From the sequence record JX128259: 64,000 bases of DNA; one strand, 5' to 3'. Made by a program: the position numbers and the translations under genes. Below the pieces are notes generated by a model that was not told the DNA's origin, ran no database searches, and saw nothing but the letters and a program-made list of their open reading frames with translations. The stretch comes from Escherichia phage ECML-134. Below are positions 26,946 through 63,481 of the stretch, piece by piece (within the stretch, counting starts at the first letter, position 1; every line of letters begins with the position of its first letter).

Positions 26946-27407
26946 TCATTGAGTTTTAATTACTGCTTTAGAAGCCTTTCCTGGTAAACGACGACTGTTA
27001 ATAATTGCCATCCTACATTGGAGTGACGGGTCTTTGAACTTCTCATTAGGTTTACAAACTGTAAATCCAAGCCAAAGATTTCCATCTGTGATTTCTAAAC
27101 GTCCAGGACGATATTCAATCCCATCAATAAAATCCTCATCGATATCAGGACGCGGAGGCATACTCAGGAATTCATTAACTTCTAAAACATGGTCTTTTAT
27201 TTTATGGAATAATTCAAAAACATATGTCTCATCAATCTCCCGTTGAATTGCGCGATCAAGAAGATGCTGAGAATATTTTAGATGAAACGATGAGACTCCT
27301 GCTGCTTTTGATGCCTCACGAATCTCATTGTTAATTTGACGAAACTCCGACTCAAAGTGACGACGAAGCTTATTTCGACGGATAAAAACTTCTGTATTGA
27401 TAGTCAT
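26946..27407 (-). CDS. regB: Endoribonuclease RegB
   Basis: 153 aa; matches recalled T4 RegB sequence and length; early promoter at 27423-27470. Confidence 0.75.
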   Translation of the reverse strand: MTINTEVFIRRNKLRRHFESEFRQINNEIREASKAAGVSSFHLKYSQHLLDRAIQREIDETYVFELFHKIKDHVLEVNEFLSMPPRPDIDEDFIDGIEYRPGRLEITDGNLWLGFTVCKPNEKFKDPSLQCRMAIINSRRLPGKASKAVIKTQ

Positions 27408-27422
27408 GTTATTCTCCTCTTA

Positions 27423-27470
27423 ACTGATAGAAAAATTATACCACAGTTAAGAGGAAAAGTAAACAGTTAT
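27423..27470 (-). promoter_or_regulatory. Early promoter with stem-loop upstream of regB
   Basis: gtaaac at 27459-27464; inverted repeat taactg/cagtta flanks the -10. Confidence 0.5.
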
Positions 27471-27745
27471 TCTTTAAATCTAATCAATTTATTCATAGAC
27501 TTTGAAACTTCTGCACGAACCTCATGTAGATTTTTGAGCTGTTCAAGACGCTGCGTATAGTAAGCAATTTCATCTTCTTCGAGACAGTCCTGTGAATCTT
27601 CTTTAAGATAACGTGCATAGTCCTGGAAAGCGTTACGGACTACTTCCTGGAAGTCATCAAGACTTTGAATTTTCTTAGGAGCAACAGATACACGACGAGG
27701 GGCAGTATAATACTCATAACCAAACCCTGCGCTTAATTGAGCCAT
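27467..27745 (-). CDS. Hypothetical protein (vs.3-like position)
   Basis: Internal start MAQLSAGF gives a TAATG junction. Confidence 0.4.
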
Positions 27746-28011
27746 TAGTATTTTTCCTCTGGTTGGAACACTGCACGACAAGCCCACATACTGGCTTCTT
27801 TGAGTTTCGTTTTAGCAATAGTTAACTGATCGAGGCTTTCAGCATAATTCTTCGCGAATTCACAGTCTTCACAATTATCTAGTGCTTCCCAGAATTCATC
27901 GTATAAAGCGTCAAAGATAAGTCCTAAACGAATTTCAGCGTCTTTGATAGCATTCACTTTACCGATTTTCTCTTCAGTATGCGGCTTATAACCTTTAATG
28001 TCTTCAATCAT
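27745..28011 (-). CDS. Hypothetical small protein at the vs.4 position (Acb2 candidate by synteny only)
   Basis: About 88 aa from start MIEDIKGY; T4 vs.4 is the described anti-CBASS sponge Acb2; no sequence comparison possible here. Confidence 0.35.
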
Positions 28012-28225
28012 ATTTGACTTCCTCACCAGTACATAAATCATATTCAACTAAACGAATAGGTTCATGAATGCCATATCCCTGAACAGAAATTTCTGTCGTA
28101 GGATAAATTCCATCAATATCGCCCATATTCCACGCTTCATTAAATTGCTGTTCGCCTGAATTACTAAACCACTCGGCGAAAGCATTTAGCACATCTTCAG
28201 AACCTTCAATAATTATCTTTGCCAT
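28004..28225 (-). CDS. Hypothetical acidic protein
   Basis: 73 aa ORF. Confidence 0.4.
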   Translation of the reverse strand: MAKIIIEGSEDVLNAFAEWFSNSGEQQFNEAWNMGDIDGIYPTTEISVQGYGIHEPIRLVEYDLCTGEEVKYD

Positions 28226-28587
28226 TACAAACTCTCGGTAAAGGTACGAGCGATAACGTCGCGCTGCTGTTCCGGAGTCAGAGAGTTAAAGCGAACTGCA
28301 TAACCGGATACACGGATGGTCAGCTGCGGATATTTTTCCGGATGCTTAACTGCATCTTCCAGAGTTTCACGACGCAGAACGTTAACGTTCAGGTGTTGAC
28401 CACCTTCAATTTTAACTGTAGGCTGTGGCTCAATTTCAATTTCACGGGCATGCAAACCATAGAAAATTTCTGGGTCTACAAAAGAGTCCTCTTTAAAGGT
28501 TTTAGAGACAATAATTCGTGCTTGAATACCATCTTCAAAATAAATAGTACCTTTATGTGTGCCTTCAAGAATTTGATATGCTTTCAT
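28225..28587 (-). CDS. Autonomous glycyl-radical cofactor (GrcA/YfiD-like; T4 Y06I-like)
   Basis: 120 aa; C-terminal [60 protein letters not shown] carries the RVSGY glycyl-radical motif and matches my recollection of E. coli GrcA. Confidence 0.85.
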
Positions 28588-28594
28588 ATAAACC

Positions 28595-28924
28595 TCAATT
28601 AGAAAATAAATTTATCCAAGATTGTTCTTTAATTAAAAACGGCTCAGAATCATATGCCATTAAACTTTGCGTAATTAATCCTTTAAAAGGTCCATCAATA
28701 AATTCCATGGTAAAATATGGAATTTTATTCATTAGCCGTGCATTAGGAGCAGTGCACAAAACTCTGCATCCTTTGAATACGCCTTTTTGTAATTTGTATT
28801 GCTTAGGATAAAATTCGCTCAAAATGTTATTGTTTGCTAAAATTTCAAAATGATTCACCAATTTATTTTTAATAGTTTTTGGCGAAAAATAAAGATATTC
28901 GAAAAGCTGAGTGTCTGTCATCAT
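28595..28924 (-). CDS. Hypothetical protein
   Basis: Start at [10 protein letters not shown]; overlaps stop of upstream P-loop gene. Confidence 0.4.
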
Positions 28925-29460
28925 TGCATTCCGATTACGAAAAACTGCGGACGAGTAATACCACCAATGCAACAGTTAATATTACAGCAGTGGTGTACAG
29001 TGTCAATATGGACACTATAAATCTTATCCATATCAGGAGATTTGACAGGCTCATCAATTATATACAAAATTCGCGAAAGCGATAAACCTCTGAACTTGCT
29101 TCCTTTATTACCAATAAAACTGCGTACAGAATCAGTAAATAAACGAAAACGTATATCATCATTAGAATAACGCGAAAATTCCTTTTTAATGTTATTTGCA
29201 GAAATTTTAGCGTAAGCTGAAGTATTAGAAAGAACAATAACTGTTCCACCGTCATACAACCAATTAGCGGCAAAATTAGTTACTGCAGTTGATTTACCGG
29301 ATTGACGTCCACCATCTAGTCGAAGTGTGCAATACTGCTTAAGTAAGTCTTCAAATGGCGGGATATATTCGTTTTTACAAATTTCTTCTACTCTAGCGTC
29401 AGAATGGTGTGTAAAAGCATTCATCAGGGATAGATAAGGACCAGTTAAAAATGTTCTCAT
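28921..29460 (-). CDS. Small P-loop NTPase with Cys/His-rich C-terminus
   Basis: Walker A GGRQSGKST, Walker B ILYIIDEP, C-terminal HHCCNINCC; start MRTFLTG after agagagaataaa RBS; sits where denV is in T4. Confidence 0.5.
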   Translation of the reverse strand: MRTFLTGPYLSLMNAFTHHSDARVEEICKNEYIPPFEDLLKQYCTLRLDGGRQSGKSTAVTNFAANWLYDGGTVIVLSNTSAYAKISANNIKKEFSRYSNDDIRFRLFTDSVRSFIGNKGSKFRGLSLSRILYIIDEPVKSPDMDKIYSVHIDTVHHCCNINCCIGGITRPQFFVIGMQ

Positions 29461-29494
29461 TTTATTCTCTCTAAATTTGGGCCATTCCATGGCG

Positions 29495-29530
29495 CATGAA
29501 TTGTCCATTTCTGTATTTACCCATTACCGC
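29495..29530 (-). repeat. About 34-nt repeat, copy 1
   Basis: catgaattgtccatttctgtatttacccattacc versus catgaattgtccatttctatatttacccattacc at 30144-30178. Confidence 0.6.
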
Positions 29531-29613
29531 ACTTGGGCTCGACCTTATTACAGGTTGGCGGGAATCCCTCACAGAATCATGAGGTCCAGCTTGTTCCCAT
29601 ATTTCTTATTTGC

Positions 29614-30087
29614 TTATTTGAATGATTTAACGTACTGAATAGAGCCTTTACTATTCACGAAAGCGATTTTACCATTTTTATTATACATGGTAGCAGTACG
29701 CTGATAGCCATAAGTTTGCTTACCAGATTGATAACCAACTAATGCAAAATTATCTTCACCCATTTTATTCTGTTTAGCACGAATACGTTCATGACCATGT
29801 GCCATAAGAACTTTAGCATCACCAGTTGCAATGGATCTACGAGTTTTTTCATCTTCAACTGTATTAACAAAATCGTCAAATGAATCAAATTTAGCATGTG
29901 ATTTATTATACAGTTTTCCATCTACTGCATAATTATATCCTTGTACATCCATCTCAACTTCTGTACCATCATCTAATACAGCAGTAATTTTCTGTCCTTT
30001 TTTAAATTTCAAAAGATCAGTAAAAGATTCAGCAATAATTTGAGAATTAATAGCTGCTTCAGTAATAAATTCTTGATATGTTTTCAT
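29614..30087 (-). CDS. Internal-protein-like capsid-targeted protein
   Basis: N-terminal MKTYQEFITEA matches the T4 internal-protein capsid targeting sequence; 157 aa. Confidence 0.6.
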   Translation of the reverse strand: MKTYQEFITEAAINSQIIAESFTDLLKFKKGQKITAVLDDGTEVEMDVQGYNYAVDGKLYNKSHAKFDSFDDFVNTVEDEKTRRSIATGDAKVLMAHGHERIRAKQNKMGEDNFALVGYQSGKQTYGYQRTATMYNKNGKIAFVNSKGSIQYVKSFK

Positions 30088-30143
30088 GTATATCCTTTAA
30101 ATGTAAATAGTGTTATTATTTAAGTTTTGGACAATTCACACAC

Positions 30144-30178
30144 ATGAATTGTCCATTTCTATATTTACCCATTACCAG
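30144..30178 (-). repeat. About 34-nt repeat, copy 2, adjacent to perfect hairpin tgaattgtcca/tggacaattca
   Basis: See copy 1; the hairpin at about 30128-30160 has an 11-bp stem. Confidence 0.6.
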
Positions 30179-30195
30179 GTTCGAACTCGGCTTTA

Positions 30196-30777
30196 TTAAG
30201 AATTACCGCGGGCTGCATTAGCAACAGCGTAAGCGTACTGAACATTAGCGTCTTTAAACGTACCTTTAGAGGTATCTAGTTCTGCCTTAAAGCCGCCTTT
30301 AGTCATAACCTCGGCGAATTCTTTACGGAAAGCCATTGCATCAAGGCTTCTCCATGACGATTTGTGCTTGGCGAATTCAAGACCAGCGTAGTTGACAGCC
30401 TTAGCTAATTTATTATCAATAACCCATTTACCAGCTTTAGGCACAAACACCGGGCCTTTCTGTTTAGAGAATAGTTTTAAATTCCAGCGACGAAGGTCAC
30501 CGTCAGCTTTAACAAAAGCTGCGTCCAAGTTACTAGCAACAACATCTTGAATATGGCCAAATTTAAGCCCATCAACTTCAATATTTAAATCTGTACGCCA
30601 GCGAAGTCCTTCCCAAGCGAAAGCTTTAAAGTCAGAAGCTTTTGTAGCTAAGTATCGTTCAATAGGGGCTGTTTTAGGGTCAAAGCCGTTTCCCGATCGG
30701 TAGGTCCACTCATCTTTATTAATGCCTTTGGCCTTTTCCACAGAAGCTTCAGCGATAAATTCTTTATACGTTTTCAT
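30196..30777 (-). CDS. ipIII: Internal protein III-like
   Basis: 193 aa; N-terminal MKTYKEFIAEA targeting sequence; position just before e as in T4; size close to T4 IPIII. Confidence 0.65.
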   Translation of the reverse strand: MKTYKEFIAEASVEKAKGINKDEWTYRSGNGFDPKTAPIERYLATKASDFKAFAWEGLRWRTDLNIEVDGLKFGHIQDVVASNLDAAFVKADGDLRRWNLKLFSKQKGPVFVPKAGKWVIDNKLAKAVNYAGLEFAKHKSSWRSLDAMAFRKEFAEVMTKGGFKAELDTSKGTFKDANVQYAYAVANAARGNS

Positions 30778-30807
30778 GTGTTTCCTTTAAATATTTTAAT
30801 TAGTAAC

Positions 30808-30848
30808 TGTGAATATACTATCACAGTTTTAGGAGAAAGTAAACAACT

Positions 30849-30850
<2 letters not shown>
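30808..30850 (-). promoter_or_regulatory. Early promoter with stem-loop upstream of ipIII
   Basis: gtaaaca at 30839-30845; inverted repeat actgtga/tcacagt flanks the -10. Confidence 0.5.
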
Positions 30851-31379
<529 letters not shown>

Positions 31380-31380
<1 letters not shown>

Positions 31381-31835
31381 TAAAAGAGGCTGTTCATTAT
31401 TCGGTAAAGTGAAGGACCCATCACATATTGCCACTGAGTACGAGGAATAAGAGCAAAAGCGTCCATCTCTGGAATCATAACGCCATCTTTATTTTCAAAA
31501 TAAGACTTGCAGCGGCAATTTCTAAACATCTCATGCTCTACTGGAATCGTATAATAAAATAACTGTAGGTCTTTATTACTAGAATATTTAAATACACCTA
31601 GGTCTTCTAGAAGGTCTGGATTATAATTGCTAAAACCAGTCTCTTCTAAACATTCTCTTCGTGCTGCATCTAATGCGCTTAAATCAGAATTTTCTACACG
31701 ACCTTTTGGAATATCCCAACGATGTGCCATCGTTCCAGGCTTACGAGAACCAGTAACCCGACCCATAAATAAATCTTTATCTTCTGTCATAAAGATAATA
31801 CCAGCTGATAGTGTTTTCATTTTAATTTCCTGCAT
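31380..31835 (-). CDS. nudE: Nudix hydrolase NudE
   Basis: Nudix box GRVENSDLSALDAARRECLEETG; 151 aa; start may instead be the ATGA-coupled Met at 31820. Confidence 0.8.
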
Positions 31836-32305
31836 TCAGTGATAAAGTTATTTAAATTTTGAGCATATTTCTTTTCATCAAAAATCTTTTGCTGTCTGCG
31901 TAAACGCCATGGCATTTCAATGAACATGCGCCATATTCCTGATAATACTGCTGCTGTAAAAATATTAACAAGTATAGTTAAAAGAACCCAATCTCCTATT
32001 CTGTCCATTGGATTTTTTATAAAAAAGTAAAATACGAACGATGATATAGGAAGACTAATGATATACCACAGAAGAACCTTCTTATCTGTGAACCAATCAG
32101 CATTCGTTAACTTAGCGCGACCATTTTGAATACACACGAATTTATCATCTGTTACAGTAAATGGCTTAGTTACTTGATATCCCATTCTAAACTCCCTAAT
32201 TAATCGTTTCTTTGTATCTTCGGAACAACCATTCCAGTCAACTCTATCAACTGAAATGCCATCATCCCCATCATCTAAATCATACCAGCGAGTTTTTAAA
32301 ATCAT
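31817..32305 (-). CDS. Hypothetical membrane protein
   Basis: 162 aa; two hydrophobic helices; C-terminal FITECRKLK. Confidence 0.5.
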   Translation of the reverse strand: MILKTRWYDLDDGDDGISVDRVDWNGCSEDTKKRLIREFRMGYQVTKPFTVTDDKFVCIQNGRAKLTNADWFTDKKVLLWYIISLPISSFVFYFFIKNPMDRIGDWVLLTILVNIFTAAVLSGIWRMFIEMPWRLRRQQKIFDEKKYAQNLNNFITECRKLK

Positions 32306-39071: not shown

Positions 39072-39119
39072 TTTATTCTCCAATTTCACATTTGTTTTGA
39101 TAGGGTAATAGTATCACTA
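39065..39119 (-). repeat. Promoter-leader cassette, copy B
   Basis: See copy A; includes RBS, start codon and -10 region of the downstream gene. Confidence 0.7.
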
Positions 39120-39150
39120 CTAAAACCCCGTGTAAACAACTTTGTGAAAT
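39100..39150 (-). promoter_or_regulatory. Early promoter upstream of the ipI-position gene
   Basis: tgtaaaca at 39131-39138; gatagggtaatagtatcactac -10 region; A/T-rich upstream element. Confidence 0.5.
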
Positions 39151-39156
39151 TGTTTA

Positions 39157-39469: not shown

Positions 39470-39520
39470 GATGAGGTAATAGTATCACTACCTCATCAGT
39501 ATGTAAACAACTTTGTGAAA
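39470..39520 (-). promoter_or_regulatory. Early promoter with perfect stem-loop
   Basis: gatgaggta-atagtatcac-tacctcatc hairpin; tgtaaaca at 39502-39509. Confidence 0.5.
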
Positions 39521-40217
<697 letters not shown>

Positions 40218-43544: not shown

Positions 43545-45255
43545 TAACCTTAATTGGTTTGTTGGTGTTGTTGAAGATAGAATGGACCCATTAAAATTAG
43601 GTCGTGTTCGTGTTCGTGTGGTTGGTTTGCATCCACCTCAAAGAGCACAAGGTGATGTAATGGGTATTCCAACTGAAAAATTACCATGGATGTCAGTTAT
43701 TCAACCTATAACTTCTGCAGCAATGTCAGGAATTGGAGGTTCTGTTACAGGACCAGTAGAAGGAACTAGAGTTTATGGTCATTTTTTAGACAAATGGAAA
43801 ACTAACGGAATTGTCCTTGGCACGTATGGTGGAATAGTTCGCGAAAAGCCTAATAGACTTGAAGGATTTTCTGACCCAACTGGGCAGTATCCTAGACGTC
43901 TAGGAAATGATACTAACGTATTAAACCAAGGCGGAGAAGTAGGATATGATTCGTCTTCTAATATTATCCAAGATAGTAATCTAGACACTGCAATAAATCC
44001 CGATGATAGACCACTATCAGAAATTCCAACTGATGATAATCCAAATATGTCAATGGCTGAAATGCTTCGCCGCGATGAAGGATTAAGACTAAAAGTTTAT
44101 TGGGATACCGAAGGATATCCGACAATTGGTATTGGTCATCTTATCATGAAGCAGCCAGTTCGTGATATGGCTCAAATTAATAAAGTTTTATCAAAACAAG
44201 TTGGTCGTGAAATTACAGGAAATCCGGGTTCTATTACAATGGAAGAAGCGACGACTTTATTTGAGCGTGATTTGGCTGATATGCAACGGGACATTAAATC
44301 ACATTCTAAAGTAGGACCAGTCTGGCAAGCTGTTAACCGTTCTCGTCAAATGGCGTTAGAAAATATGGCATTTCAGATGGGTGTTGGTGGTGTAGCTAAA
44401 TTTAACACAATGTTAACTGCTATGTTAGCAGGAGATTGGGAAAAAGCATATAAAGCCGGTCGTGATTCATTGTGGTATCAACAAACAAAAGGCCGTGCAT
44501 CCCGTGTTACCATGATTATTCTTACGGGGAATTTGGAATCATATGGTGTTGAAGTGAAAACCCCAGCTAGGTCTCTATCAGCAATGGCTGCTACTGTAGC
44601 TAAATCTTCTGACCCTGCTGACCCTCCTATTCCAAATGACTCGAGAATTTTATTCAAAGAACCAGTTTCTTCATATAAAGGTGAATATCCTTATGTGCAT
44701 ACAATGGAAACTGAAAGCGGACATATTCAGGAATTTGATGATACCCCTGGGCAAGAACGATACAGATTAGTTCATCCAACTGGAACTTATGAAGAAGTAT
44801 CACCGTCAGGAAGAAGAACAAGAAAAACTGTTGATAATTTGTATGATATAACCAACGCTGATGGTAATTTTTTGGTAGCCGGTGATAAAAAGACTAACGT
44901 CGGTGGATCAGAAATTTATTACAACATGGATAATCGTCTTCACCAGATAGATGGAAGCAATACAATATTTGTGCGTGGCGATGAAACTAAGACGGTTGAA
45001 GGTAATGGAACTATCCTAGTTAAAGGTAATGTTACTATTATAGTTGAAGGCAATGCTGACATTACAGTTAAAGGAGATGCTACCACTTTAGTTGAAGGTA
45101 ATCAGACTAATACAGTAAATGGAAATCTTTCTTGGAAAGTTGCTGGGACAGTTGATTGGGACGTTGGTGGTGATTGGACAGAAAAAATGGCATCTATGAG
45201 TTCTATTTCATCCGGTCAATACACAATTGATGGATCGAGGATTGACATTGGCTAA
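43528..45255 (+). CDS. 5: Baseplate hub / tail lysozyme gp5
   Basis: 575 aa; lysozyme domain (MAEMLRRDEGLRLKVYWDTEGYPTIGIGHL) and C-terminal beta-helix VxGxxxxxV repeats. Confidence 0.95.
   Translation: MEMISNNLNWFVGVVEDRMDPLKLGRVRVRVVGLHPPQRAQGDVMGIPTEKLPWMSVIQPITSAAMSGIGGSVTGPVEGTRVYGHFLDKWKTNGIVLGTYGGIVREKPNRLEGFSDPTGQYPRRLGNDTNVLNQGGEVGYDSSSNIIQDSNLDTAINPDDRPLSEIPTDDNPNMSMAEMLRRDEGLRLKVYWDTEGYPTIGIGHLIMKQPVRDMAQINKVLSKQVGREITGNPGSITMEEATTLFERDLADMQRDIKSHSKVGPVWQAVNRSRQMALENMAFQMGVGGVAKFNTMLTAMLAGDWEKAYKAGRDSLWYQQTKGRASRVTMIILTGNLESYGVEVKTPARSLSAMAATVAKSSDPADPPIPNDSRILFKEPVSSYKGEYPYVHTMETESGHIQEFDDTPGQERYRLVHPTGTYEEVSPSGRRTRKTVDNLYDITNADGNFLVAGDKKTNVGGSEIYYNMDNRLHQIDGSNTIFVRGDETKTVEGNGTILVKGNVTIIVEGNADITVKGDATTLVEGNQTNTVNGNLSWKVAGTVDWDVGGDWTEKMASMSSISSGQYTIDGSRIDIG

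Positions 45256-60343: not shown

Positions 60344-63481
<3,138 letters not shown>

Follow-up and report, generated by a model that had tools for sequence, protein, structure and literature searches.

Which gene stands beside the internal-protein genes of this phage at the place where T4 carries denV, and what has become of denV itself? In T4, the gene order is vs.7–vs.8–denV–ipII–ipIII–e. In the 64-kb stretch of DNA analyzed here (hereafter, the window), the genes around vs.8 all lie on the minus strand; their arrangement is given in Table 1, together with the other features discussed below. We propose, with considerable confidence, that the P-loop open reading frame (ORF) next to the internal-protein genes is an ortholog of T4 vs.8 encoding a predicted ASCE ATPase, that the Cys/His-rich loop of its product is not a conserved metal site, and that denV is missing because an Ip4 cassette stands in the place of T4's ipII and denV. 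The source region is that of a Tequatrovirus (T4-like phage). A 1.7-kb query around vs.8 retrieved 878 phage records, the best being Escherichia phage vB_EcoM_SCS4 at 99.3% identity, and the entire 64-kb window aligns without gaps to positions 32001–96000 of SCS4 at 98.4%, the differences being clustered and transition-biased. SCS4, whose complete genome comprises 166,783 bp, was taken as the closest relative throughout.

Table 1. Features of the vs.8/internal-protein locus and related elements, with positions in the window
Feature	Position	Strand	Basis or remark
nudE	31380-31835	-	first in transcription order
e (lysozyme)	30849-31343	-	between nudE and ipIII
ipIII, internal protein gene	30196-30777	-	92% identical to T4 IPIII
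Ip4, internal virion protein gene, 157 aa	29614-30087	-	DUF7412, PHROG 3155, annotation in Shfl2/RB32
Ip4 body, segment without T4 counterpart, 453 nt	29603-30055	-	blastn breakpoints and junction alignment
56-nt direct repeat, copy 2, just downstream of ipIII	30143-30198	-	repeat search, 82% identity
56-nt direct repeat, copy 1, inside vs.8 leader	29495-29550	-	repeat search, 82% identity
Non-coding leader upstream of vs.8 (probable), conserved, relatively GC-rich, 142 nt	29461-29602	-	94.7% identity to T4
vs.8 ortholog, 179 aa, single-domain ASCE P-loop ATPase (predicted)	28921-29460	-	91% identical to T4 Vs.8
Walker A/P-loop GGRQSGKS, residues 50-57, including P-loop arginine R52	29290-29313	-	sequence reading
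Walker B ILYIIDEP, residues 131-138, catalytic-type glutamate E137	29047-29070	-	sequence reading
HHCCNINCC, residues 156-164	28969-28995	-	loop between last helix and last strand
vs.7, 109 aa	28595-28924	-	99% identical to T4 Vs.7
vs.6	28225-28587	-	99% identical to T4 Vs.6
187-aa MKT[YF]xEF protein	35425-34862	-	targeting sequence
96-aa IPI-like protein	39447-39157	-	targeting sequence MKT[YF]xEF
77-aa MKT[YF]xEF protein	39071-38838	-	targeting sequence

Direct reading of the sequence bears out the ORF of the initial annotation, including its GGRQSGKS, ILYIIDEP and HHCCNINCC motifs. The longest reading, of 195 aa, starts from an ATG at 29508, but the ATG at 29460 is the most plausible start, given that 15 of the 19 homologs begin at the same methionine and that the PHROG 1488 profile aligns from there over its full length (E 1e-79; residues 3–179 against profile positions 2–177 of 177). 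The encoded protein is 100% identical to that of SCS4 and 91% identical to T4 Vs.8 (NP_049732) over T4 residues 26–219, and the orthologous ORF carries the name vs.8 in RB32 and Shfl2. Gene order agrees, the ORF having the ip/denV locus on its upstream side and vs.7/vs.6 immediately downstream. T4 Vs.8 shares its motifs, its position between the ip/denV locus and vs.7, and a conserved leader with the gene described here, and differs in its Cys loop, which reads HYCCNSKCC. Based on sequence and position, we conclude that the P-loop ORF is the ortholog of T4 vs.8, denV's usual neighbor. The initial annotation had placed this ORF in the slot of denV, an assignment that does not hold, since vs.8 adjoins denV in T4 itself; being the ortholog of vs.8, the ORF is therefore not what replaced denV.

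The vs.8 family is small and phage-restricted, with 50 clusters (50% identity level) in a set of 1.84 billion representatives, every one about 150–190 aa long, and vs.8 itself was found in 1,008 phage records, every one of them enterobacterial and T4-like. It would be a conserved, non-essential accessory gene that forms a fixed border of the variable internal-protein/denV locus in these phages. Its stop codon, a TGA at 28921–28923, overlaps the start codon of vs.7 (ATGA). JD18 and IME523 show this 4-nt overlap too; STML-198 has no vs.7. The pattern suggests coupled expression of the two genes but not an obligatory partnership. A search for Vs.7 homologs yielded few proteins, fragments for the most part. 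NCBIfam holds no family for Vs.8, Vs.7 or IPIII. As an observation on its own, the product of vs.6, two genes downstream of vs.8, resembles the autonomous glycyl-radical cofactor GrcA/YfiD (Pfam Gly_radical, E 2.8e-18).

What is the nature of the sequence upstream of vs.8? T4 annotates it (T4 sequence L004, 5794–5943) as 40 extra N-terminal residues of a 219-aa Vs.8. An 8-nt insertion that T4 carries beside the start codon is missing from the window, RB32 and ECO78, and there the sequence does not share the reading frame of vs.8. The reference annotation of T4 is thus probably 40 residues too long, and the segment is probably a non-coding regulatory leader; the area has served as the source of a 'promoter of vs.8' in a study of Thoeris defense (PMC13243611). 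An Rfam scan of 27000–32000 at E up to 1 returned no match, folding of the 153-nt leader gave no sign of RNA structure (z-score 0.05), and a scan of 28100–31000 for sigma-70 promoters and terminators yielded no more than the shuffled expectation. Among the 20 differences between the window and SCS4 within 28200–30900, 10 fall in an 82-nt, GC-rich part of the leader (29510–29591). We set this cluster aside, since the SCS4 record has Ns there and a sequence-quality problem in that record is likely.

The sequence motifs and predicted fold of Vs.8 have the hallmarks of an ASCE ATPase: a Walker A motif of the form GxxxxGK[ST], a Walker B motif of the form hhhhD followed by glutamate, and a predicted RecA-like alpha/beta fold. 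An AlphaFold2 model consists of a single alpha/beta domain (pLDDT 82, pTM 0.83), and the strand following Walker B is immediately succeeded by the C terminus, at residue 179. In an alignment of 19 homologs, both Walker motifs are invariant or nearly so. The invariant and near-invariant positions comprise D49-G-G-R-Q-S-G-K56, R113, R124-G125, I134-I135-(D136)-E137-P138, K146, Y148 and the C-terminal strand FFVIGMQ, with D49–K56, E137 and P138 strictly invariant and D136 kept in at least 90%. Even when the alignment is extended to 39 family members, down to about 20% identity, R52 is among the best-kept residues (at least 90% of members). A distant, metagenomic, Vs.8-like subfamily (P0056, P0058, P0060 and P0065) has GH[ST] in place of GK[ST] in its P-loop and no Walker B DE; these proteins are possibly catalytically inactive relatives.

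Sequence profiles and the structural model place the nearest annotated relatives of Vs.8 among the ATPase domains of terminase large subunits and domain 1 of SF1/SF2 helicases. Of the 39 family members, 20 matched PHROG 2 (terminase large subunit), with a best E of 3.9e-8, and one matched phrog_7579, likewise a terminase large subunit; these were the only functionally annotated PHROGs at E ≤0.001. Vs.8 itself stays below the curated Pfam cut-offs (Terminase_6N, 14.1 bits against 22; AAA_14, 18 against 27), and the sub-threshold Pfam votes across the family go to AAA_14 (26/39), Terminase_6N (16/39) and AAA_30 (9/39). A profile–sequence alignment of Vs.8 with gp17 from the window, at E 0.0026 but a probability of only 11.7%, pairs GGRQSGKS with SRQLGKT. 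At that same low probability (11.7%), it pairs FRGLSLSRILYIIDE of Vs.8 with a 13-residue gp17 stretch, matching RGLS..YIIDE with RGNS..IYIDE. R52 aligns with the arginine of gp17 SRQLGKT, and Vs.8 thus carries the P-loop arginine of terminases. Terminase ATPases have been described as having a cis-acting arginine in the P-loop and a trans-acting one immediately ahead of the Walker B strand (PMC5727402). A Foldseek search with the Vs.8 model had the phi29 and P74-26 packaging ATPases among its matches, although the matches are generic for ASCE domains, with TM-scores of at most 0.5 to solved structures. PDB sequence searches with the single protein and with the profile gave noise (E ≥0.03), and PADLOC found no meaningful match to Vs.8. 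Neither two distant family members nor the family alignment gave anything usable when run against viral contigs, and tblastn of the two distant members against phage genomes recovered only T4-like vs.8.

Vs.8 is nonetheless distinct from either class of relative. Unlike the terminase large subunit (T4 gp17), it has only about 180 aa and lacks both the lid subdomain II and the RNase H-like nuclease domain, and the phage encodes a full gp17 separately, at 61649–63481 of the window. Unlike SF1/SF2 helicases such as DEAD-box proteins, Mfd and RecD, to which its identity is 7–17%, it is a single domain without a second RecA-like domain, and none of the helicase signature motifs (Q, Ia or others) was seen in it. 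We therefore read Vs.8 as a putative minimal ASCE ATPase of the terminase/helicase type. Such a protein would bind and hydrolyze ATP through K56 and D136/E137 and would act as a homo-oligomer, with R52 as the cis P-loop arginine and, probably, R124 of the conserved FRG or R113 as the trans-acting arginine. It probably acts on nucleic acid, or serves as a nucleotide-driven accessory or counter-defense factor, possibly with Vs.7.

Stand-alone proteins of about 145–175 aa with a similar predicted fold are found in BFVD for many large phages, among them Proteus phiP4-3, Vibrio JSF10, Aeromonas Aes012, Pseudomonas 201phi2-1 and Dickeya JA29; nearly all are uncharacterized. One may speculate, as a long shot, that Vs.8 and the stand-alone phage ATPases of about 150–180 aa are terminase-derived mini-ATPases with a dedicated role in virus–host conflict. 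If so, they could be decoys or competitors for host sensors of the terminase ATPase, or small ring-forming motors that work on nucleic acid, and a fast-evolving interaction surface would then be provided by the hypervariable Cys-rich loop, with Vs.7 as a partner. Irrespective of this idea, a widespread, motif-perfect, terminase-like mini-ATPase is a reasonable candidate for accessory-gene or counter-defense screens.

What is the relevance of the Cys/His stretch near the C terminus? The initial annotation had singled it out as an unusual cluster; the residues are indeed there, but they form part of a non-conserved, variable loop. In the AlphaFold2 model, pLDDT falls below 50 for residues 161–168, and residues 161–170 are the most variable 10-residue block of the protein, among close relatives and overall. 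One could nevertheless picture Vs.8 as a metallo-NTPase whose Cys/His cluster binds a Zn or Fe-S center essential to function, in keeping with the presence of four cysteines plus histidine within nine residues in T4, T2 and this phage and with the retention of the CC dyad in relatives of at least 64% identity. We consider this unlikely: the dyad is kept only at that level of identity, the second Cys pair is already lost in close relatives, and cysteines are absent from the loop at about 55% identity (e.g., Yersinia phage MHG19) and in all more distant relatives, quite apart from the variability and low predicted confidence of the loop. The sole Pfam match to the stretch, to a conotoxin family, was rejected as sub-threshold and compositional. 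Family-wide metal ligands of the Cys4 or Cys-His type were not found, and because the ligand residues are not conserved, the stretch is, as judged from the alignment and the model, a hypervariable surface loop; it is not a metal site that defines the family. For the T4/T2 group, a lineage-specific site of metal binding is conceivable.

Is Vs.8 a functional protein at all? In T2 (AP018813; L013, 5757–6289), where the locus reads vs.7–vs.8(broken)–Ip4–e and contains no denV, ipII or ipIII, two separate 2-nt deletions spread vs.8 over three frames, and only a 57-aa piece is annotated; the frameshifts represent either a natural knockout or a sequencing error. Several database entries for Vs.8 are truncated as well. 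Because it is broken in T2 and truncated in these entries, vs.8 appears to be dispensable in the laboratory. Such cases, along with the lack of a known phenotype, would be expected if Vs.8 were what is left of a duplicated ATPase domain, from a terminase or a helicase, that has no function today and is decaying. We regard decay as improbable, since the catalytic motifs do not vary between genera even where identity drops to 40%, vs.8 keeps a fixed position in about 1,000 phage records, and its coupling to vs.7 is conserved. A role in nucleotide metabolism, with Vs.8 as a P-loop enzyme of the kinase type acting on small molecules (nucleosides or nucleotides), has in its favor a length of about 180 aa, typical of such kinases, and the presence of tk and nudE in the region; it seems quite unlikely. 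A literature search for vs.8 brought up a single relevant paper, the Thoeris study, in which Vs.3 to Vs.8 were expressed singly against type IV Thoeris; only Vs.3 (TadIV-1) inhibits the defense, and Vs.8 does not (PMC13243611).

If vs.8 did not take the place of denV, what did? That denV is missing was claimed from the outset, and tblastn confirms it: searches of the 64-kb window with endonuclease V (EndoV) from T4 and with a divergent one from phage ECO78 (the two being 78% identical) returned best E values of 12 and 2.6, both noise. Nor was a homolog found elsewhere, the same two queries giving nothing in the complete SCS4 genome (best E 2.6). Judged from this 98.4%-identical relative, denV is absent from the whole genome, the phage's own DNA being covered over 64 kb. 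DenV thus has no similarity to anything in the window or SCS4 and is merely the gene neighboring vs.8 in T4.

The blastn alignment with T4 delimits what was exchanged. A first block of homology (window 28900–29602) runs through vs.8 and its 142-nt leader, and a second (30056–30900) covers e, ipIII and 32 nt at the start of the following ip gene. The edge of the first block abuts the stop codon of denV in T4 but is separated from that of Ip4 by 12 nt in the window. The junction alignment places the resumption of homology at GGGAACAA, directly after the TAA in T4 and 12 nt after the TAA in the window. The T4 counterpart of the intervening Ip4 body is 744 nt long (T4 sequence L004, 5944–6687) and consists of the ipII body, the intergenic spacer and denV. 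Because the homology blocks end and resume there, the breakpoints lie in the shared coding region for the targeting sequence and at the vs.8 leader. We propose that the exchange was bounded by these two shared sequences, the capsid-targeting 5' end of the ip genes and the vs.8 leader, and that denV would be missing for a reason unrelated to vs.8, namely, that the lineage carries an Ip4 cassette where T4 has ipII and denV. Of the initial idea of a module replacement at a hypervariable junction, the exchange stands and the partners do not, the Ip4 body facing the ipII body, spacer and denV. The view of the P-loop gene as a foreign module that displaced denV before ipII fits with the absence of denV and with an ORF directly following an internal-protein gene, but it deserves next to no credence, since T4 has the same gene beside denV and the orthology refutes it, T4 homology continues without a gap across vs.8 and its leader as far as the edge of the denV stop codon, and the neighbor is Ip4, not ipII.

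The neighboring ORF had been taken for ipII and is instead Ip4, matching Pfam DUF7412 with an E of 5.7e-96 as well as PHROG 3155, which is labeled 'internal virion protein'; Ip4 is also its annotation in RB32 and Shfl2. Its similarity to T4 IpII (33% over 79 aa, E 1.7e-4) is confined to the N-terminal capsid-targeting sequence MKTYQEFI. The order vs.8–Ip4–ipIII–e is common to at least six sequenced phages (SCS4, VEc74, G4498, Shfl2, ECO07P2 and ESh24), and among the 878 records retrieved, 308 (query coverage of 80% or more) have Ip4 as the neighbor of vs.8. RB32 and T2 have vs.8–Ip4–e with no denV in the locus, ECO78 has vs.8–Ip4–denV–ip–e, and IME523 has vs.8–ip–denV–ORF–e. An ip gene also lies directly upstream of vs.8 in STML-198 and JD18; in all, three genera besides Tequatrovirus show this placement. 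By gene order, the locus is a mosaic across phages. T4 injects its internal proteins, which inhibit GmrSD-type restriction enzymes, and the loci encoding them are polymorphic (PMC12373910; PMC9391042), the ip-locus polymorphism of T-even phages being credited to Repoila et al. (1994) as cited in PMC12373910. In those phages, ip genes with a shared capsid-targeting 5' end are swapped as cassettes; the same is seen in the window and is nothing new.

Ip4 is flanked on both sides by copies of a 56-nt direct repeat. The 34-nt core of the repeat is present twice, where chance would give zero occurrences, and T4 has the element only upstream of vs.8; the repeat may be a homology arm for cassette insertion or loss. 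Three further genes in the window begin with the capsid-targeting signature MKT[YF]xEF (Table 1), bringing its internal-protein genes to five. Separate repeats upstream of ip genes (30815–30858, 39108–39151 and 39479–39522) read GTTTAC(17 nt)TAGTAT on the coding strand and resemble T4 early promoters. They recall the mobile promoter/stem-loop cassettes of T4-type hyperplastic regions.

Classically, phages T2 and T6 show about twice the UV sensitivity of T4, since they lack v (denV) function. The phage described here is expected to be T2-like, not T4-like, in UV sensitivity, a point of practical relevance wherever it is inactivated or titrated with UV. The gene vs.8, the layout of the locus and the lack of denV are all already known from deposited T4-like genomes, and cassette exchange at the ip locus has been described for T-even phages. 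Apart from e, the window contains a second lysozyme-like segment on the plus strand (44047–44544), 43% identical to T4 e, which sits within an ORF matching the SCS4 'baseplate hub' gene (gp5-type lysozyme domain).
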